Below, piece by piece: positions 1-46,702 of a stretch of 47,787 bases of DNA. The stretch comes from Candidatus Hadarchaeales archaeon. GTDB taxonomy: Archaea; Hadarchaeota; Hadarchaeia; Hadarchaeales; Hadarchaeaceae. The DNA lies in NCBI GenBank assembly GCA_038851565.1, contig JAWCKV010000002.1:1-47787 (forward strand). The letters run 5' to 3'. The notes beneath the pieces were generated by a model. That model was given only the letters and a program-made list of their open reading frames with translations. It was not told where the DNA came from and ran no database searches. Each line of letters starts with the position of its first letter. The first letter of the stretch is position 1. A program made the translations under genes and the position numbers.

Positions 1-257
1 ACAGCGACCAGGACATCCCCAACCCTTATGGCCGGAGTTATGGTCTCCCCGACGACGTAGACATCCAGGTCAAGGTGCATGAGCCTCTTGGCGAACGCCT
101 TGACGACAAGCCCGGACCTTCCACCCCCCACGACGAACACGCGCCTTGCGCTCAGCAGGATCTTCACAAAGCTCTCAACCTGCGACCTGTTGAGCTTCTT
201 TGTCGTAGCCACGAGGTGTTCTATTATCTCCTCCATGGCCCTTCTGGTCTCTCGCAT
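1..257 (-). CDS. hxlB: 6-phospho-3-hexuloisomerase (PHI, SIS domain), 3' end runs off the window
   Basis: Not in ORF track; manual translation MRETRRAMEEIIEHL...RRVFVVGGGRSGLVVKAFAKRLMHLDLDVYVVGETITPAIRVGDVLVA carries the GxGRSG...FAxRLMHL...VVGETxTP PHI signature; SD-like GTGAGGG before the ATG. Confidence 0.9.
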   Translation of the reverse strand, partial: MRETRRAMEEIIEHLVATTKKLNRSQVESFVKILLSARRVFVVGGGRSGLVVKAFAKRLMHLDLDVYVVGETITPAIRVGDVLVA

Positions 258-6318: not shown

Positions 6319-8673
6319 TCACAGCCTTATCCCCTCAAGCCACGCCTTTCTCATGGCCTTCCCGGATATCCACACGGATCTCCTCCCCCTGATTATCAGT
6401 GAATTTTCCCTCCTCACCGTCCCTATCCTCGCAAACTCGCACCTCATCAGCCTCTCGAATTTTTTCTCCTTACCCCTCCGCACCTCCATCAGGAACCTGC
6501 TGTTTGACTCGGAGAAGAGCAGGTGATCCTCCCTCTCCACCCCGCTGGCTGGCACCCTGCTCAGGTAGACATCCGCGCCAAGGTCCCCGCTGATCACCAT
6601 TTCTGCGAGGGCCACACCTAAGCCACCCTCCGAGAGGTCATGGCAGGCAGCAACGCATCCAGAGTCGATCGCCCTCCGGACGGATGAGAGGACCTTTTTC
6701 GCCTGATCCTTCCTAACGACAGGAACGCTTGATCCGGTCTCCCCAAAGAGCCCGTAGTACTCCGATCCGCCAAGCTCCGGATAGGTCCTGCCCACTATGT
6801 AGATGGCATCCCCGGGCCTTTTCAGGTCCACCGTGACCGCTTTCCCCACGTTGGGAATTATCCCCAGCGCGGTTATCAGGAGGGTCGGGGCCACTGGCCC
6901 CAGAGGCGACTCGTTGTAAAGGCTGTCCTTTCCGGATATGAAGGGCGCCCCGAACAGCACCGAGAAGTCATGGCAGGCCTCGCACGCCCTGAGGAGAGAG
7001 GCAAGCTGTTCTGGTTTCTCCGGATTTCCCCAAACAAAGTTGTCCAGCAGCGCGATCCTCCTGCCTCCAACCGCAATGTTGTTCCTGATCGCCTCCTCAA
7101 TGCTCGAGGCGGCCATCCAGTACGGATCCACCTTCCCGTATCTGGGCTTTATTCCGCAGGAGATCACCACGCCCCTCTTGGAGTCCGGAAGGGGCTTTAT
7201 CACGGCCGCGTCGTTCGGCCCGCCGTATCTTCCGTGCAGCGGCTTTATCGCTGTTCCTCCCTGGACCTCGTGGTCGTACGTCCTCACCACGCTTTCCCTG
7301 CTTGCTATGTTTGGGGAGGAGAGGAGCCTGAGCAAAATCCTCCCCATGTCCCTGGGCTCCGCGATGGATGGCTCCGGCGGCTTCCTCTCCTGGAACTTCA
7401 CCTCTCTCTCGGGTAGGGGCGGTGAGAACAGGAATTCCAGGTTCAGGCTCATCACCTGGTATCCCCTGTACAGCACCTTGGCCCTTCTCCCGGCCTCAAA
7501 CCTCCCGACTACTGTTGCCTCCACATCCTCATCCGAGAACACGGAGAGAACCTCATCAACTTTTTTCTCCGGCACGGAGAGCAGCATCCTCTCTTGGGAC
7601 TCTGAGATCCATATCTCCCAGGGCCGCATTTCCTCGTACTTGAGCGGCACCCTTTCGAGTTCCACCGTCACGCCGCACCCGGACCTGTTCGCCACCTCGC
7701 ATGCCGCGCAGGAGAGGCCGCCTCCCCCCAGGTCTGTGATTCCGGAGGCGAGCCCCCTGTCCCTTATCTCAAGAATTGCCCTCTTCAGCTTCTCCTCCTG
7801 AATGGGGTCGGGTATCTGCACGGCCGGCCTGTGAACCTCCTCGGATCTTTCCGTGAGCTCGGCTGAGGCGAATGTCACTCCGTGTATTCCGTCCCTCCCT
7901 GTCCTGCCGCCTGCCAGCACGGCCAGATCCCCAGGCTGGGTGTTCCTCACATATCTGCGCACGGGAAGCAGTCCCACGCATCCGCAGTACACAACCGGGT
8001 TCCCCACGTAGCTCTCATCGAAGCATATGGCCCCTGAGACGGTCGGGATGCCCATGTTGTTGCCATAGCAACCTATGCCGGCCACCACCCCTCTAAATAT
8101 GTATCTCGGGTGCTTCATTCCAGCAGGAAGCGTGCCTGAGTAGTCAAGCGGGCCGAACCCCAGCACATCGGTGTTCGCGATCGGCTTCGCCCAAACCCCC
8201 AGTATGTCCCTTATTACCCCCCCCACCCCGGTCGCGGCTCCCCCGAAGGGCTCTATGGCGGAGGGATGGTTGTGTGTCTCCACCTTGATGGCTATCGCGT
8301 AATCGCGCTCGAAGGAGACTATCCCCGCGTTGTCCTCAAAGACCGAGATACACCATTTCGGCGAGAGCCTCCGCGTGGCTCCAGATATGAAATCCCTAAA
8401 GAGGCGAACCTCCCTCCCGTCCACTTTTATCCTGCCCTTGAATGTCTTGTGGTAGCAGTGTTCTGACCAGGTCTGGCCTATCGTCTGCAGCTCAACGTCA
8501 GTCGCCATTCTTCCCTCTCTGCGGAAGTACTCCCTGCACGATCTCATCTCCTGAAGGTTGAGCGCCAGCCCGAGATCTCCACTTATCCTCATCAGCTCCC
8601 CGTCGTCGGCTCCTGCGATGTCGAACTCGTAGAGCTCGAAGGGAAGGTCCAACCTCCTTTGGATCTCGCTCAC
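6319..8673 (-). CDS. purL: FGAM synthase large subunit
   Basis: WSEHCYHK, ETHNHPS, DLGGGG, SESQERM, HDLSEGG. Confidence 0.97.
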   Translation of the reverse strand: MSEIQRRLDLPFELYEFDIAGADDGELMRISGDLGLALNLQEMRSCREYFRREGRMATDVELQTIGQTWSEHCYHKTFKGRIKVDGREVRLFRDFISGATRRLSPKWCISVFEDNAGIVSFERDYAIAIKVETHNHPSAIEPFGGAATGVGGVIRDILGVWAKPIANTDVLGFGPLDYSGTLPAGMKHPRYIFRGVVAGIGCYGNNMGIPTVSGAICFDESYVGNPVVYCGCVGLLPVRRYVRNTQPGDLAVLAGGRTGRDGIHGVTFASAELTERSEEVHRPAVQIPDPIQEEKLKRAILEIRDRGLASGITDLGGGGLSCAACEVANRSGCGVTVELERVPLKYEEMRPWEIWISESQERMLLSVPEKKVDEVLSVFSDEDVEATVVGRFEAGRRAKVLYRGYQVMSLNLEFLFSPPLPEREVKFQERKPPEPSIAEPRDMGRILLRLLSSPNIASRESVVRTYDHEVQGGTAIKPLHGRYGGPNDAAVIKPLPDSKRGVVISCGIKPRYGKVDPYWMAASSIEEAIRNNIAVGGRRIALLDNFVWGNPEKPEQLASLLRACEACHDFSVLFGAPFISGKDSLYNESPLGPVAPTLLITALGIIPNVGKAVTVDLKRPGDAIYIVGRTYPELGGSEYYGLFGETGSSVPVVRKDQAKKVLSSVRRAIDSGCVAACHDLSEGGLGVALAEMVISGDLGADVYLSRVPASGVEREDHLLFSESNSRFLMEVRRGKEKKFERLMRCEFARIGTVRRENSLIIRGRRSVWISGKAMRKAWLEGIRL

Positions 8674-36490: not shown

Positions 36491-38080
36491 TTACGCTTTT
36501 TTAATTTCTTCCACCTGTTGAACGAACTTCCTGTAGGCCTCCCCGCCCTTAAGCTTTTCAGCGTCCCTCTTGTATAGGTCATCCTTTAATCTCCTGCCCG
36601 TTGTCTTCTCCCATTCCTCAAACGATACTCCCTGGCTTTTCTGGTCCCTGTCCCTATACCACTCCGGTATGACATTAAAGGCGCAGAATGGAACCACTCT
36701 CCTGTCGGTCATCACATAGTGGATGCAGCAGCGCTTCACCCTCTCTATGTCGTAGTTGTACAGGTCCATGAAGTGCATCATTCCTATGAAGAGCGCCCTC
36801 ATGTGAAACTTGCCCAGGGCATCGTAGTTGTGCCTCACTATGATGTCGAACAGCAGTTTCCCCACGTCCAAGTCCTTTGGCTTGCTTTTCTTGTCTATGA
36901 ATTTTCCGATGTTGCCTAAGATCTTCATTCCAACCAGGGCCCTGCTCTTCCCCTTCCTGAGCTCACCCGTTTTCTCCCGCAGGTACTCCAGAAATCCCTC
37001 CACGTCGATGAACCTCGTGATGGGAAGCATCCTTTCACCATCTTTAAACACATATGTGGCGGCGCCGCAGGCGAAGTGGCTGCTGAGGTCGTACATCGCC
37101 CTGCCCGTGAGAGCTTCGAGGAAGCCGCTGATCACCATCGCGGTTGGCACGGGGAAGAAGTCTTCAGCTGCTATCTCGCCGTTCGTCTGCTCTTCGAGCC
37201 TTTTGAGCACGTCCGGGATTGTTACCCTGTACCTTTCCCTCTCCTCCCTGGGCATGCGCCCAACAAGGGAGACCGGCTGGAAGTTAACCCCCCGGATGAC
37301 ATCCAGATTCTTGAATCCGAACCTCACGATGTCCCCGATCTCTCCGTCGTTTATCGAGTTGATCACAGTGGGCACGAGGACGATCCCCATCCCAACTTTC
37401 CTGCAGTTCTCCAGAAGCTGCGGGACCTCCCAGTGGTTCTTTGGATTGGTTTTTTCGGTTAATCCGTCAAAGCTCAGGTAAAGGGTGTTCACTCCCTCCT
37501 CCCTAACCTTTTTCAGGAGCTCGGGATCGTGGGCCAGCCTTATGCCGTTGGTGTTCAGCTGGACATGATCTATTCCATGCCTTTTGATGGTCCTTATTAT
37601 CTCTATGAGATCCTCTCTGAGGCACGGCTCTCCCCCCGTGATCTGCACCGCGTTGCATGGAATTGGCCTCTCATTTCTGAGTATCTCCACCATTTCATCT
37701 ATCTGCTGGATGGTCGGCTCGTAAACGTAGCCGACGCGTCCTGAGTAGAAAAAGCAGTACCAGCAGGTCAGATCACATCGGTTGGTTACCACTATGTTCG
37801 CGAGGGCCGTGTGACTTTTGTGGATTCTGCACAGCCCGCAGTCCTTGGGACACACCGGCGCTTCCTTCACCACCTGAGGATTTTCGACCCCCCTTCCGTC
37901 TTGGGAATATCTCTTTGCCCTCTCGTACCACTCTCTGGAACCAAAGTAAAGCTCCCTGAATTCCCCGTGCTCCGGGCAGGTCTTGGTTATCCATACCCTG
38001 CCTCCATCGTCAAGTACGGTGGCGGGTATTATCTTCAGGCACTCTGGGCACACAGATTCAGTTTTTGCCAGTTCTTCCAT
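36491..38080 (-). CDS. tes: Tetraether lipid synthase (GDGT-macrocyclic archaeol synthase, MJ0619-like radical SAM)
   Basis: N-terminal CPEC...CPEH rubredoxin-like site, CPKDCGLC..H, CDLTCWYC SAM cluster, HFACG, C-terminal MHFMDLYNYD..RVKRCCIHY...PFC. Confidence 0.88.
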   Translation of the reverse strand: MEELAKTESVCPECLKIIPATVLDDGGRVWITKTCPEHGEFRELYFGSREWYERAKRYSQDGRGVENPQVVKEAPVCPKDCGLCRIHKSHTALANIVVTNRCDLTCWYCFFYSGRVGYVYEPTIQQIDEMVEILRNERPIPCNAVQITGGEPCLREDLIEIIRTIKRHGIDHVQLNTNGIRLAHDPELLKKVREEGVNTLYLSFDGLTEKTNPKNHWEVPQLLENCRKVGMGIVLVPTVINSINDGEIGDIVRFGFKNLDVIRGVNFQPVSLVGRMPREERERYRVTIPDVLKRLEEQTNGEIAAEDFFPVPTAMVISGFLEALTGRAMYDLSSHFACGAATYVFKDGERMLPITRFIDVEGFLEYLREKTGELRKGKSRALVGMKILGNIGKFIDKKSKPKDLDVGKLLFDIIVRHNYDALGKFHMRALFIGMMHFMDLYNYDIERVKRCCIHYVMTDRRVVPFCAFNVIPEWYRDRDQKSQGVSFEEWEKTTGRRLKDDLYKRDAEKLKGGEAYRKFVQQVEEIKKA

Positions 38081-43333: not shown

Positions 43334-44212
43334 CTACCGCCTCACGTGGCCGCTGCGCCCCTTTTTCCTGAACTCCGCTAGCAGTTTTCTCATTTCCTCG
43401 CGCGGCATCTCAAAGCTCTGCGCGATGGTCGGGAATTTTCCCGATTTTACCTCGTTTCTGAATTCAGAGATCGCCCTTGATATCGTTTCGCTGACGTTGG
43501 CGTATCTCTTTACGAACTTGAGCTGTTTGTCCTCCATGCCCAGGATGTCGTGCAGGACCACCACCTGCCCGTCACAATAAGGTCCAGCCCCGATTCCTAT
43601 CGTCGGTATCTCAAGTTTCTCCGTTATCAGCTTTGCAAGCTGCCAGGGCACGCACTCGAGGACAAGCGCGGATGCCCCGGCCCTCTCGAGCCTGATCGCA
43701 TCATCCATCAATCGCTTGGCTGTGGAGCTGGTTTTCCCCTGAACCCTGAATCCGCCGAACTGGTGGTACCACTGTGGGGTCAGCCCGAGATGCCCAATTA
43801 CGGGTATTCCTGACTCCACGATGGCCCTGGCCCTGCTGACCATCGCGCCACCTCCTTCGACCTTGACGGCCTCTGCCCCGCCCTCCTTCACGAGGCGTCC
43901 TGCGTTTCTAATCGCGTCCTCCTCGCTCGCCTGATAGGACATGAAAGGCATATCTCCCACCACCAGGGCCCTCTCCACGCCCCTGGAGACAGCCTTGAGG
44001 TGGTATATGATGTCCTCAACTGTCACGCCAAGCGTATCTCTGAGTCCGAGGACAACATTCCCAAGGGAATCCCCAACAAGTATAGAATCCACTCCTGCGG
44101 CGTCTAGAAGTTTGGCGGTCGGGCAGTCATACGCCGCAACCATGACTATCCTTTCGCCCTTTGATTTCATCTCCGTGAGAGAGGCAGCTGTGACCTTCAT
44201 CCTGCGCACCAT
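43334..44212 (-). CDS. panB: Ketopantoate hydroxymethyltransferase
   Basis: AYD, LVGDSLG, DMPF, VKVEGG, HLGLTPQ, IGIGAG, GQVVV. Confidence 0.96.
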   Translation of the reverse strand: MVRRMKVTAASLTEMKSKGERIVMVAAYDCPTAKLLDAAGVDSILVGDSLGNVVLGLRDTLGVTVEDIIYHLKAVSRGVERALVVGDMPFMSYQASEEDAIRNAGRLVKEGGAEAVKVEGGGAMVSRARAIVESGIPVIGHLGLTPQWYHQFGGFRVQGKTSSTAKRLMDDAIRLERAGASALVLECVPWQLAKLITEKLEIPTIGIGAGPYCDGQVVVLHDILGMEDKQLKFVKRYANVSETISRAISEFRNEVKSGKFPTIAQSFEMPREEMRKLLAEFRKKGRSGHVRR

Positions 44213-44251: not shown

Positions 44252-46702
44252 ATGGTTGGAGGGTATAAGGGGAAAATTCTCTGGGTGGATCTTTCAAGTG
44301 GACGAACAGCGGTGGAAAGGATTAACCTGAGGCTTGCATACAACTACCTCGGCGGAAGGGGATACGCTGCCAGACTTCTGTACGAGCGCCTGAGGCCAGG
44401 GATAGATCCCCTGGGCCCCGAGAACGTCCTGATCCTGATGACGGGCCCCCTGACGGGCACTGCATATCCGGGGGCGGGAAGAACTGCGGTGTGCTCAAAG
44501 TCGCCGCTCACGGGGACAGTGGCAGATTCCCTCATGGGGGGCGCATTTGGTGCTTTCCTCAAAATGGCCGGATTTGATGGGATAGCGTTCAAGGGGGTCT
44601 CAAGGGAACCGGTCTATCTCGCTGTGGAGGACGGCAGGGTTTCGATCGAGAGCGCTGCCCATCTGTGGGGAAAAACCACGGTCGAATCAGGCAGGGAGCT
44701 CCTCGGCGCATACGAGGGCTCTTGGATTGCGGCAATAGGTCCGGCAGGTGAGAACCTGGCCAGAATGGCCTGCATATACACCGCGGGAAAAGGGGGAAGG
44801 GAGGGATATGCTGGAAGGTGCGGCATGGGGGCGGTGATGGGGTCGAAGCGCCTGAAGGCGATCGTGGTGAGGGGGTCGGAAAAGGTTAATGTTGAGCACG
44901 AGGCGGAGTTCAGCAAGATGTTGAGAAAGATAAGAAAGGTGATAGAGACGCACCCCATAACGGGCTCAGACGGCAGCCTTGCCAGGTTTGGCACAGCGCT
45001 TCTGGTGCACAGGATCACTGCCGCAGGCATGCTCCCCAGTGAAAACTTCTCCGGAAAAAAGCTCACCTTTGACGATGTCGATGGGTTTTCAGGGGAAACC
45101 GTCCGGGAAAGGTACCTCGTGAGGAAGACCGCCTGTTTCGCATGTCCCACCGCCTGCGGCAGATGGGTCAGGGTGGGGGGCTGGGAGGGAAAGGGCGCGG
45201 AGTATGAGAACATAGCGATGCTAGGACCCAACTCGGGTTTCTATTCCTACGATGAGATAACCGAGCTGAACAGGCTTTGCGATGAGCTGGGTCTGGATGC
45301 GATCTCCGTCGGGGGGATACTGGGGTACGCGAGGGCGGCAGGGGAGGTGTCTGGGTTCGAGGAGGCGAAAAGGTTGATCGCAGAAATAGCGGGCGGGAAA
45401 TCAAAATACTCGGGCGGGCTTGCGAGGATGAGGTCCGGGCGGGGGATCCTCAAGCCGGTCGTGAAGGGACTGGAGCTGCCGGCCTACGATCCAAGGGGCG
45501 CAAGGGGCATAGCCCTCGCATATGTCACCTCAAACAGGGGAGCGTGCCACCTGAGGGCCTACACGATCGCACCGGAGATATTGAGCAATCCCGAGTTCGT
45601 GGATCCGAGATCGGATAGGGGCAAAGCCAGGCTCGTCAGGAGGATGCAGGATGCCTTCGCGGTATATGACTCGATGATAGGCTGCAAATATCATGCGCTT
45701 GCGCTCTTTGCCACTCTGGAGTTCGAGCTGGATGATATAGCGAGAACCCTGACCGCGCTTACCGGCCTGAGCTGGTCTGGTGAGGACCTGCACGACGTTG
45801 GGTCCCGCATCTATGACGTTGAGCGTTTGTTTAACGTTCGCGAGGGATTCACCCCGGATGATGATGCCCTGCCGGGAAAGTTAGATGTTGTCCCGAGGAA
45901 ACTGCTTTTGGAATACTATGCGGAGAGGGGATGGAGCAGAAGAGGAATTCCAAAGAGGAGGCCGCTGAGGGGGATAAAGCGGGCCAGGAAGTTTAGGATT
46001 ATAACGAGTCCGCTTGAGAGGCTATCGTTTCCGGCGTTGCAGGTGGCGCTGGACATGGATGCCGACGTTGAGACAGCGGCCTCGGTCGCGAGGGAGGTGT
46101 ACCTGGGTGGGGCACCCATCGTGGAGGCGGGAACGCCTTTGATCAAGAGGCATGGTGTGGAAAGGCTTATCCCGGTGCTGCGGAGGGCGGCCCCTGGGGC
46201 CCTCATAGTTGCCGATCTTAAGACGATGGACGTTGGAAATCTTGAGGCCAGAATAGCATTTAGGAGCGGAGCGGACATTTCCGCGGTGCTTGCGATCGGG
46301 GGGAGGACAAAGATAATGGAGGCGGTGAGCGAGGCAACGAGGTGGGACAGGGCAATTCTGATAGACTTCATAGACTGCGAGGATCCGCTCGGCAGAATGG
46401 AGGAACTCAAAGAGGATCTAGAGGGACATGAGGAGCGCGTGGTGTTCTGCCTGCACAGGGGAATAAGCGAACAGCTGAAGGGAAGGGGGATATATGAGCA
46501 GGCCCAGCTCATCGCCGAGGCCAAGAAGATCGCGGGCAGGTTCCCTCTGGCTGTGGCGGGAGGAATAAAGGAGGGCGTGGCGAAGGATGTGGTTGCCGCC
46601 GGGGCGGACATATGCATAGCCGGCAGCGCGATATACAACTCCTCGGATCCGAGGGCAGCAGCGAGAAGGATCATTGAGGAGATCAGGGGGTCTAGGCAGT
46701 AA
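44252..46702 (+). CDS. Fusion: aldehyde:ferredoxin oxidoreductase (aa 1 to about 570) + 3-hexulose-6-phosphate synthase (aa about 594-816)
   Basis: AOR: LGGRG, KSPLTG, IGPAGE, GRCGMGAVMGSKRLKA, CFACPTAC, EYE, DELGLD, RGACH, YYAERGW. HPS: LQVALD, EAGTPLIK, ADLKTMD, VAGGI, GSAI. One continuous frame. Confidence 0.9.
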   Translation: MVGGYKGKILWVDLSSGRTAVERINLRLAYNYLGGRGYAARLLYERLRPGIDPLGPENVLILMTGPLTGTAYPGAGRTAVCSKSPLTGTVADSLMGGAFGAFLKMAGFDGIAFKGVSREPVYLAVEDGRVSIESAAHLWGKTTVESGRELLGAYEGSWIAAIGPAGENLARMACIYTAGKGGREGYAGRCGMGAVMGSKRLKAIVVRGSEKVNVEHEAEFSKMLRKIRKVIETHPITGSDGSLARFGTALLVHRITAAGMLPSENFSGKKLTFDDVDGFSGETVRERYLVRKTACFACPTACGRWVRVGGWEGKGAEYENIAMLGPNSGFYSYDEITELNRLCDELGLDAISVGGILGYARAAGEVSGFEEAKRLIAEIAGGKSKYSGGLARMRSGRGILKPVVKGLELPAYDPRGARGIALAYVTSNRGACHLRAYTIAPEILSNPEFVDPRSDRGKARLVRRMQDAFAVYDSMIGCKYHALALFATLEFELDDIARTLTALTGLSWSGEDLHDVGSRIYDVERLFNVREGFTPDDDALPGKLDVVPRKLLLEYYAERGWSRRGIPKRRPLRGIKRARKFRIITSPLERLSFPALQVALDMDADVETAASVAREVYLGGAPIVEAGTPLIKRHGVERLIPVLRRAAPGALIVADLKTMDVGNLEARIAFRSGADISAVLAIGGRTKIMEAVSEATRWDRAILIDFIDCEDPLGRMEELKEDLEGHEERVVFCLHRGISEQLKGRGIYEQAQLIAEAKKIAGRFPLAVAGGIKEGVAKDVVAAGADICIAGSAIYNSSDPRAAARRIIEEIRGSRQ

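Follow-up and report, generated by a model that had tools for sequence, protein, structure and literature searches.

Many archaea make their pentoses by running the RuMP pathway in reverse, and in doing so they free one formaldehyde for every pentose made. To our knowledge, the fate of that formaldehyde in lineages with neither Fae nor H4MPT chemistry has so far been left vague, and we know of no physiological substrate assigned to most clades of the AOR family. According to PMC5241800, Fae fused to hexulose-6-phosphate synthase (HPS) 'might immediately capture formaldehyde' and serves pentose synthesis by reverse RuMP; the same paper names HPS-MenG/RraA-like as another HPS fusion of archaea. 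In the HPS-PHI pathway, fructose-6-phosphate is cleaved to ribulose-5-phosphate and formaldehyde (PMC12628685). Metagenome work goes no further than suggesting that a separate AOR might oxidise formaldehyde (PMC8065059).

The AOR-HPS fusion that we describe here, from a Hadarchaeales archaeon, can be set beside each of these systems. It resembles the Fae-HPS of methanogens and other H4MPT-using archaea in putting HPS and a proposed formaldehyde-consuming partner on one polypeptide, but the partner is an N-terminal pterin/[4Fe-4S] oxidoreductase of about 570 residues, whereas Fae has about 160, and the chemistry would be oxidation to formate with reduction of ferredoxin rather than condensation with H4MPT. 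Among solved structures, the HPS barrel of the Thermococcales HPS-PHI (9lj9) comes closest to the C-terminal half (123 bits), yet there the partner is the next enzyme of the pathway and nothing handles formaldehyde, whereas AOR-HPS goes with a separate PHI gene. The partner domain of HPS-MenG/RraA-like is unrelated, of unknown role and absent from AOR-HPS, and the corresponding NCBIfam model, NF005442, matches AOR-HPS through its HPS part only. Finally, the tungsten AORs (1aor, 9mqx, 9g7j, 8c0z) and FOR (1b25) share with AOR-HPS the fold, the Cys ligands and the Glu and His positions, but none of them has an HPS domain. Our literature search found no published description of an AOR-HPS fusion, just as the preliminary description of this DNA had known of none; supplements (for example, that of PMC11237513) could list it. 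The architecture is thus apparently undescribed but, as set out below, widespread.

The gene lies at 44252..46702 on the forward strand of the window, by which we mean the whole 47,787-nucleotide stretch that was analysed, and in the ORF list and its translation it is a single unbroken ORF of 816 amino acids plus stop, for which a full-length product of 90 kDa is expected; all further features of the gene are on the same strand. AFOR_N (Pfam PF02730; residues 7-208, 44270..44875; E 6.6e-75, 251.7 bits with a cut-off of 29.8) is followed by AFOR_C domains 2 and 3 (PF01314; residues 223-572, 44918..45967; E 2.2e-86, 290.8 bits with a cut-off of 27), by a basic linker recognised from its composition (residues 562-594, 45935..46033) and by an HPS-like (beta/alpha)8 barrel (PF00215, OMPdecase; residues 595-807, 46034..46672; E 2.7e-25), which opens with ALQVALD at nucleotide 46034. 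Apart from a weak overlapping PcrB match, these are the only Pfam domains on the chain; the Pfam scan found no Fae, SIS/PHI or RraA/MenG-like domain on it, and NCBIfam fusion models match it solely via their HPS part. The preliminary description had read this stretch as one uninterrupted 816-residue ORF joining AOR to HPS, and the translation and the three Pfam domains confirm both that reading and the motif positions it gave; the linker is basic, as it had said (12 K+R and 1 D+E), but at 33 residues is slightly longer than its 'about 25 aa'.

The AOR-HPS fusion is real and no assembly artefact, because independent metagenome contigs of other runs read straight through the junction with zero indels. 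For example, X3 record 12 spans 45949-46195 with 0 differences to the window, and X4 record 21, which originates from a different study than the window's presumed one, spans 45730-46375. The continuity of the reading frame across the linker had been part of the original claim, and the contigs from other runs are continuous there, no insertions or deletions being tabulated. The RNA run X7 yielded short pieces only, at about 45464-45759, and these are no evidence of expression.

Within the AOR half, the motif CFACPTAC (C295-C302, 45134..45157) supplies the CxxCxxxC cysteines C295, C298 and C302 and aligns to CYACPIGC of 1aor, and the fourth cluster cysteine, C478, sits in DSMIGC (45683..45685) and aligns with a Cys of 9mqx; from the 1AOR literature, we take these four to be the [4Fe-4S] ligands. 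The EYE motif (E317-Y318-E319) and the conserved H433, both inside AFOR_C, align to 9mqx and 1aor, the EYE and CH of 1aor falling on the fusion's Glu and His positions, and YYxxRGW is read from the translation at residues 555-561. We further presume that E317, E319 and H433 lie near the metal and that D349 (of DxxGLD) and R77 take part in pterin binding. In an alignment of 64 of the best 120 listed proteins, 58 rows of which bear HPS, all nine residues (C295, C298, C302, C478, E317, E319, H433, D349 and R77) are invariant in 64/64 rows. In addition, Foldseek recovers the three domains common to solved AOR and FOR structures (TMt 0.83-0.88). MoaC was found in 5/5 fusion-bearing genomes tested, and synthesis of the pterin cofactor therefore seems to be retained; WtpA was found in 0/5 of these incomplete MAGs, which says nothing on whether the metal is W or Mo.

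The scores of the AOR half against solved chains run from 390 bits (9mqx) through 367 (1aor), 354 (9g7j) and 342 (9q1t) to 330 (8c0z), and the P. furiosus FOR (1b25), at 265 bits, falls below these AOR-type structures, so that, judged by sequence, the AOR half appears to lie outside the FOR subfamily and nearer the broad-spectrum AORs. Nothing in the sequence singles out formaldehyde, and because the half is not FOR-like (265 bits versus 367-390), we infer formaldehyde as its substrate from the fusion and the pathway context. The fusion AORs form a clade of their own, whose members score at least 578 bits, as opposed to at most 406 bits for ordinary AORs, and type I fusions lack two of the loops of ordinary AORs, one of about 12-18 residues and one of about 13. 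The segment after C478 is about 3 residues longer in the fusion clade than in 40+ ordinary AORs; an insertion of six residues at this point, suggested by comparison with PDB AORs, was not upheld, since it shrinks to these three or so residues in that wider comparison.

The C-terminal half had been called a complete HPS barrel rather than an OMP decarboxylase (OMPDC) or KGPDC, and the profile and PDB scores, on which the call against KGPDC rests, agree that it is HPS-like. NCBIfam HPS models score 141-143 bits on it, as opposed to 60 for KGPDC and 53 for OMPDC; against PDB chains, HPS gives 123 (9lj9), 105 (3ajx) and 80 bits, OMPDC 50 and KGPDC 38. It aligns end to end with the HPS structures 9lj9 and 3ajx, and its barrel has a Foldseek TMt of 0.87-0.90 to 3ajx and 3f4w. 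The DxKxxD motif of the OMPDC suprafamily (D655, K657 and D660, in DLKTMD at 46214..46231) aligns to ADLKTMD of 9lj9 and 3ajx, and Q597, D601, E625, K632, D655, K657 and H735 are invariant in 58/58 HPS-bearing rows, with D660 kept in 57/58; from the KGPDC and HPS literature, we take the Asp, the Glu, the DxKxxD and the His to be catalytic. This invariance of catalytic and cofactor residues bears out the completeness of both domains. The score against TIGR03128 (RuMP_HxlA) is 141.1 bits, below the equivalog cut-off of 200, so we name this half HPS-like, a member of a divergent clade and no certified equivalog; the HPS halves of type I group in a clade of their own, in which identity to other HPS is 46% at most.

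How the two halves sit together can be gauged from structure prediction. AF2 models the whole chain with a pLDDT of 93.5 and a pTM of 0.90, and the linker block with pLDDT values of 95/91/89; Foldseek finds no solved chain that covers both halves. HPS relatives are dimers, and AOR or FOR are dimers or tetramers. A complex test on the two halves, entered as two chains, returned 0.71, 0.63 and 0.53 (median 0.63), whereas the highest of 3 controls reached 0.00. The mark is one that 58/80 solved complexes and 2/110 mismatched pairs attain, counts that hold only roughly here because a custom alignment was used. Contacts agree between runs to at least 90%, with a partner pLDDT of at least 87. Most of the confident contacts come from residues 567-585 and go to AOR residues 26-31, 216-233, 487-529 and 559-561; the contacts modelled with confidence fall on the linker and on the HPS helix residues 689-699, the HPS active site being uninvolved. 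The linker is thus predicted to be held on the AOR surface, in a fixed two-module arrangement. Channelling of formaldehyde, which the preliminary description had put forward, draws no support from a model whose contacts are mainly of linker on AOR, with none at the HPS active site.

A search by domain architecture shows that the fusion recurs in Hadarchaeota, Bathyarchaeia and Asgard archaea, so the preliminary idea of a genuine architecture survives well beyond this genome. It is present in 23/66 Hadarchaeota genomes, in 21/301 sampled Bathyarchaeia and in 18/301 sampled Asgard genomes, AFOR_N, AFOR_C and OMPdecase occur together in about 110 of the 120 top-ranking protein clusters, and the fusion is retained down to 40% identity across three phylum-level lineages. 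There are split versions too, in Bathyarchaeia, in which the halves adjoin in frame and are divided solely by TAG then TTG, and in the AOR tree the split AORs nest within the fused clade. The trees were built from 60 rows (30 fusion or split proteins and 30 ordinary AOR representatives with lengths of 560-640 aa, taken in order from P0244 on), and a second set from 63 hand-picked rows, the remaining matches being left aside. The free HPS tree places type I apart from type II; when the two are held together, the AU test gives p 0.525 and the held tree has a lnL 1.01 higher. Two independent fusion events, which we entertained, were dropped, for the AU test does not reject a single grouping and the AOR tree needs no second origin. 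Three Hadarchaeota genomes (G028, G044 and G052) carry an HPS of the fusion's type but no AOR part joined to it, and in G044, which is 95% complete, there is no AOR match at all; the coupling is therefore dispensable in some lineages. Several apparent exceptions dissolved on inspection: the gene of G143, a supposed unfused member of the clade, leaves the contig end inside the linker, the internal stops of G057, G117 and G128 are terminal stop codons, and the interruption in G006 is a masked stretch translated as X.

The genome from which the window comes amounts to 823 kb and is 86.7% complete; the fusion is its only AFOR_C match and its only HPS-like gene, its other OMPdecase gene adjoining pyrE and pyrB. 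At 3..236 on the reverse strand of the window lies a gene fragment for PHI, which we take to be the pathway partner of HPS; it holds the N-terminal 78 residues, cut at the contig end, and scores 98 bits on TIGR03127 (model 1-78). A full stand-alone PHI above cut-off was found in 4/4 fusion-bearing relatives tested. Among five fusion genomes tested, transketolase is present in two (G045 and G059) and was not found in the incomplete MAGs of this genome (G000), G008 and G049, so that in these three no pentose route other than RuMP was found. No Fae was found in this incomplete MAG, and FdhA above cut-off, FTHFS and Ftr were each found in 0/5 of the fusion genomes tested, which are incomplete MAGs too; in the genomes examined, we found no formaldehyde sink besides the AOR half. 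A route by which formate would feed purine synthesis in this genome was rejected, PurP (PF06973) occurring only in G049 and PurT above cut-off in 0/5. The phylum's closest unfused AOR, at 46% identity, stands in G010 in the string DHDPS-family aldolase, AOR, SIS, SIS, and in G009 and G010 alike it lies beside two PHI-like SIS genes that score below the PHI cut-off. We discarded this AOR-PHI neighbourhood as RuMP evidence on account of those scores and of the aldolase that opens the string, and regard it as an aldolase-AOR pairing of another kind.

In Asgard archaea, Fae is found in 0/18 fusion-bearing versus 199/283 other genomes (Fisher p 1.2e-9, relatives counted as independent), and in Bathyarchaeia in 3/21 versus 176/280 (p 2.5e-5, relatives again counted as independent), so that in both groups Fae and AOR-HPS are nearly mutually exclusive; the Fisher signal is overstated because related genomes are treated as independent. 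In Hadarchaeota, the corresponding counts, 1/23 and 6/43, give a non-significant p of 0.41. The analogy with Fae-HPS that had been drawn from the sequence is backed by this scarcity of Fae in the fusion-bearing genomes of two phyla.

On balance, we put at roughly 60% the probability that AOR-HPS is a bifunctional reverse-RuMP enzyme, in which HPS releases formaldehyde and the AOR half oxidises it to formate, reducing ferredoxin; the earlier interpretation is thereby partly supported. Stand-alone PHI would convert fructose-6-phosphate to D-arabino-3-hexulose-6-phosphate, the C-terminal barrel would cleave this hexulose-6-phosphate to ribulose-5-phosphate and formaldehyde, and the N-terminal tungsto- or molybdo-pterin/[4Fe-4S] module, fixed in place by the basic linker packed against its surface, would oxidise the formaldehyde to formate and pass two electrons to ferredoxin, the probable acceptor. 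Flux in this direction would remove a toxic product, pull an unfavourable cleavage forward and recover reducing power, and proximity of the two sites may add to the effect. Redox chemistry would then stand in place of Fae's condensation with H4MPT and do the same job as in Fae-HPS.

The most serious competitor, rather unlikely in our view, is that the halves are not coupled via formaldehyde at all, the AOR half oxidising some other aldehyde (from amino-acid or sugar breakdown, for example) and the fusion serving co-expression or stability. The broad-spectrum character of the closest solved relatives, which are not FOR, the aldolase-AOR string of G010, which shows the AOR family serving other aldolase products, the lineages in which HPS of this type stands without an AOR, and the lack of active-site contacts in the model would all sit comfortably with such an arrangement. 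It is harder to reconcile with a fusion that three or more phylum-level lineages have kept, down to 40% identity, and whose halves are contiguous even when split, with a predicted linker docking that is confident and specific, with a reduced genome whose only AOR is the fusion, and with an AOR branch set apart by its scores and, in type I, by clade-specific loop deletions; and it leaves the Fae anticorrelation without an explanation.

We regard as improbable the opposite direction, with formate reduced by the AOR half at the expense of low-potential ferredoxin and the resulting formaldehyde trapped at once by HPS on ribulose-5-phosphate. Equally doubtful is its extension to a module that would turn formate into sugar in nature, drawing on ferredoxin brought to very low potential by, for example, CO or H2 oxidation; a milder version has the flux direction switch with redox state. 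In favour of this direction, the reactions of AOR-family enzymes can be reversed in vitro, HPS runs more readily towards condensation, the predicted fixed arrangement would suit the capture of a scarce, toxic intermediate, and two of the five genomes do have transketolase. Formate reduction is, however, thermodynamically demanding, and the C1-fixing direction, which had been offered as an option, is disfavoured in this genome, where neither transketolase nor formate dehydrogenase was found: with no transketolase match here or in G008 and G049, ribulose-5-phosphate could not be regenerated in a cycle, and with neither FdhA above cut-off nor FTHFS in any of the five, there is no internal source of formate that we could find. 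The fusion genomes are also small, at about 0.8-1.6 Mb, and the Fae anticorrelation suits disposal of formaldehyde better than its production.

That the barrel is another OMPDC-suprafamily enzyme (a KGPDC-like decarboxylase, for example, or an aldolase with another substrate) releasing a carbonyl other than formaldehyde seems highly improbable, since the sub-cut-off TIGR03128 score and the separate type I clade that might favour it are set against HPS models far above KGPDC and OMPDC, end-to-end alignment to the characterised 9lj9 and 3ajx, and the lack of any rival candidate for HPS in this genome, which retains PHI, as do all four relatives tested.

What would all this mean? If the formate-to-sugar direction were true, C1 would enter RuMP reductively, driven by ferredoxin. 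Synthetic biology has tried to build such an entry, and we know of none described in nature. The fusion also offers a ready-made scaffold, joining formaldehyde/formate redox to RuMP carbon chemistry, for engineered C1 assimilation. Should bifunctional reverse-RuMP oxidation prove true, it would account for how Hadarchaeota, many Bathyarchaeia and one Asgard group dispose of formaldehyde, each pentose made would bring them one reduced ferredoxin pair as an energy gain, and the fusion would act as a Rosetta-stone link, giving one clade of the AOR family a physiological substrate.

A single, unbroken open reading frame on the plus strand (44252..46702) encodes an 816-residue protein in which the Pfam domains AFOR_N (residues 7-208), AFOR_C (223-572) and OMPdecase (595-807) all score far over cut-off, joining an aldehyde oxidoreductase (AOR) to a hexulose-6-phosphate synthase (HPS). 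Translation confirms the motifs that the preliminary description had read in this frame: CFACPTAC at C295-C302 (nt 45134-45157), the distal cysteine C478, EYE at 317-319, YYxxRGW at 555-561, ALQVALD from nt 46034 and DLKTMD at 655-660, with a basic linker (562-594) whose 33 residues include 12 Lys+Arg and one acidic. The join is no artefact of assembly, and the linker hides no frameshift: contigs of three other hot-spring metagenome runs cross it without insertions or deletions, one of them (646 nt, 45730-46375) from a study other than the presumed source.

Our favoured reading, at a probability of roughly 0.6, is that 6-phospho-3-hexuloisomerase (PHI) would convert fructose-6-P to hexulose-6-P, the HPS barrel would cleave this to ribulose-5-P and formaldehyde, and the tethered AOR module would turn the formaldehyde into formate with reduction of ferredoxin; we infer formaldehyde as the AOR substrate, together with the flux direction, the acceptor and any kinetic channelling. 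What the analysis itself shows is the architecture, how well its residues are conserved, how broadly it occurs, that the halves stay contiguous where split, a rigid arrangement as predicted by modelling, the pathway context and an anticorrelation with formaldehyde-activating enzyme (Fae). The N-terminal 575 residues match solved tungsten AORs end to end (9mqx 390 bits, 1aor 367, 9g7j 354, 9q1t 342, 8c0z 330), and the CxxCxxxC, fourth Cys, EYE glutamates, CH histidine and DxxGLD pterin motif are all matched in 1aor and 9mqx and invariant in 64/64 aligned family members; their roles are presumably those of the AOR literature. Alignment is weaker to the formaldehyde oxidoreductase (FOR) of P. furiosus (1b25, 265 bits), BamB (155) and WOR5 (141), so that a likeness to FOR is not supported, broad-spectrum AORs being closer. 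This counts against a formaldehyde sink, and that the AOR half acts on an unrelated aldehyde is a possibility we take seriously but think unlikely. Operation of the fusion in the reductive direction strikes us as improbable.

The C-terminal 225 residues align at full length with characterised HPS structures (9lj9 123 bits, 3ajx 105, 3f4w 80), with 50 and 38 for the suprafamily enzymes OMPDC and KGPDC, and the best NCBIfam matches are HPS-containing models (141-143 bits; KGPDC 60, OMPDC 53), which upholds the original assignment of the barrel. Across 58 HPS-bearing rows, the catalytic residues of the suprafamily (D601, E625, D655-x-K657-x-x-D660, H735) are fully or almost fully conserved; since the NCBIfam HPS equivalog cut-off of 200 bits is not reached, we call this half a divergent HPS and not a certified equivalog. 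With such scores, a barrel that is something other than HPS is very hard to credit.

An AlphaFold2 model of the whole chain, built on a 64-row family alignment, has a mean pLDDT of 93.5 and pTM of 0.90, with linker blocks at 95, 91 and 89 and a sole soft region at 731-750, the loop past the conserved His. In Foldseek the two halves matched different structures, AORs at TMt 0.83-0.88 and HPS at TMt up to 0.90, and no solved chain covered both. With the halves supplied separately (1-566 and 567-816), the complex scored 0.71, 0.63 and 0.53 (median 0.63), and the best of the three controls 0.00; the benchmark for this score is reached by 58/80 solved complexes and 2/110 mismatched pairs, counts that are approximate because our own alignment was supplied. 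The runs share at least 90% of contacts, with partner pLDDT of at least 87, and as no similar complex has been solved, the result does not stem from a structure already known to the model. Most confident contacts are made by linker 567-585 on AOR 26-31, 216-233, 487-529 and 559-561, with others at HPS helix residues 689-699; no HPS active-site residue is among them in the two-chain models. What the models support is a tether held in place, with the two halves in a defined orientation to each other; the channelling first proposed is not shown, since they demonstrate no tunnel and the modelled contacts leave the HPS active site uninvolved.

When sought in relatives, the fusion recurs in Hadarchaeota, Bathyarchaeia and Asgard archaea. 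Of the best 120 clusters in a search of 5.8 billion proteins, about 110 have the three-domain architecture, at 40-84% identity, under source names that include Hadarchaeota, Bathyarchaeia, Nezhaarchaeota, Methanomethylicaceae, Thaumarchaeota, Hodarchaeales and Promethearchaeota, and whole-genome searches found it in 23/66 Hadarchaeota (the host, 17 relatives at full length and 5 pieces truncated by contig ends or masking), 21/301 sampled Bathyarchaeia and 18/301 sampled Asgard genomes. At 50% clustering the fusion clade reduces to a few representatives (P0063, P0113, P0242, P0071) at 578 bits or more, with ordinary AORs below it at 406 or less. Two proteins, P0108 (999 aa) and P0242 (992 aa), carry an extra, apparently degenerate HPS-like insert between AOR and the C-terminal barrel. 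Separately, an HPS match at E 1e-8 or better is missing in 28/66 Hadarchaeota genomes, among them every genome of the genera g9 (8) and g19 (5), which have no PHI matches either.

Two subtypes are seen. In type I, which covers Hadarchaeota, Bathyarchaeia and others, the basic linker is long and two AOR loops, of about 12-18 and 13 residues, are missing; in type II (Nezhaarchaeota, Methanomethylicia, Asgard) the linker is short and both loops are retained. Relative to ordinary AORs, the two share an extension of about 3 residues in the segment past the fourth Cys. The AOR tree unites type I and the split forms in one clade (SH-aLRT 100) and places type II in another (97), and the types are separate in the HPS tree (99 and 89). 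Because an AU test on the HPS tree does not reject a topology that keeps them together (p 0.525), and the AOR tree is compatible with a single common origin, we do not claim independent fusions. A Bathyarchaeia group (P0070-P0078) lost its 'AOR only' status when the DNA of L105-L107 revealed a split form. At these loci, which are 95-99% identical to the query P0071 and so count as one observation, the AOR frame (L105:6001-7686) ends ...YYKLRGWV at a single in-frame TAG, followed in unchanged frame by TTG-GAC-GGA-ATC-CCG into linker and HPS (7690-8502; junction 7681-7700, likewise in L106 and L107). The more divergent P0070, P0074, P0075 and P0078 likewise end at RGW, as judged from protein sequences. 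The split AORs nest inside fused type I sequences in the AOR tree, making the split a fission or read-through form with its halves still contiguous; translationally coupled genes after fission, read-through of the stop codon or recoding of the TAG could each account for it. Three Hadarchaeota carry a fusion-type HPS with a linker remnant and no AOR part, and that the AOR can be dispensed with speaks against a formaldehyde sink. panB lies beside this HPS, as in the window, in G044 (L100:3681-4406, DRTGG gene downstream; no AOR match at E 1e-10 or better) and G028 (L098:3468-4193); in G052 (L099:3378-4157) the upstream gene is eIF5A, not panB, and the genome additionally carries Fae-HPS, the known fusion with formaldehyde-activating enzyme (Fae).

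In the host genome (823 kb, 50 contigs, 86.7% complete) the fusion is the only AFOR_C match, and the sole other OMPdecase gene, which adjoins pyrE and pyrB, encodes PyrF. The contig start carries the N-terminal 78 residues of a PHI (3-236, minus strand; 98 bits), and stand-alone PHI is over cut-off in 4/4 more complete fusion-bearing relatives (G008, G045, G049, G059). Among these five incomplete genomes, transketolase occurs only in G045 and G059, MoaC in 5/5, and FdhA (over cut-off), FTHFS, Ftr and WtpA in 0/5. The incomplete host assembly gave no Fae match and no formate-using purine enzymes, the latter a further point against the sink. Upstream of the fusion, panB (43334-44212, minus) diverges across a 39-bp gap, and a DRTGG/AAA_26 gene converges from the other side; neither neighbour is a ferredoxin, PHI or transporter gene. 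panB encodes ketopantoate hydroxymethyltransferase, which uses a formaldehyde-level C1 unit, and lies divergently upstream of fusion or de-fused HPS in 12/14 Hadarchaeota loci with upstream flank (L006, L087-L092, L095, L097, L098, L100, L101) and 0/4 loci of other lineages; either lineage synteny or a C1 link may lie behind this. Elsewhere in the window (36491-38080, minus) is a radical-SAM protein with the HMPTM N-terminal zinc ribbon of the methanopterin-type methylase family, in a genome with no Fae or Ftr match. In G010 (contig C16, L102:4736-8585), a DHDPS-family aldolase is strung together with a canonical AOR of 593 aa and a pair of PHI-like SIS genes; a phosphoglucomutase and a second AOR lie close by. 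This resembles a further pairing of an aldolase with an AOR, possibly in a sugar-acid route.

Our full-text literature search, supplements and subscription journals aside, found no paper describing the AOR-HPS fusion. In the parts available, PMC11291895 and PMC6946796 mention no HPS fusions besides HPS-PHI and Fae-HPS; PMC5241800 gives HPS-MenG and Fae-HPS, with the argument that formaldehyde is captured immediately by fused Fae; according to a proposal in PMC8065059, formaldehyde is oxidised by a separate AFOR operating alongside the ribulose-monophosphate pathway; the main text of the archaeal fusion survey PMC11237513 contains neither 'aldehyde' nor 'formaldehyde', and the portions of PMC7143981, PMC10547907, PMC8027215 and PMC12628685 hold nothing on this fusion. 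Database annotations of the proteins exist, with sequences and domain matches already public, and it is recognition or study of the architecture that appears to be missing so far. To the known HPS fusions this protein adds one with a new partner of redox type, which would handle formaldehyde.

An AOR module that serves as formaldehyde sink is expected to replace Fae, and Fae is indeed scarce beside the fusion: 0/18 fusion-bearing versus 199/283 other genomes in the Asgard sample (Fisher p 1.2e-9), 3/21 versus 176/280 in Bathyarchaeia (p 2.5e-5) and 1/23 versus 6/43 in Hadarchaeota, where Fae is rare (p 0.41). Kinship among the genomes violates independence, so that these p values make the contrast look stronger than it is. 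That all three phylum-level lineages lean the same way fits the sink model, and the scarcity in Asgard and Bathyarchaeia strengthens the analogy with Fae-HPS drawn in the preliminary description. By holding free formaldehyde low, the tethered AOR would both detoxify the cell and pull hexulose-6-P cleavage forward.
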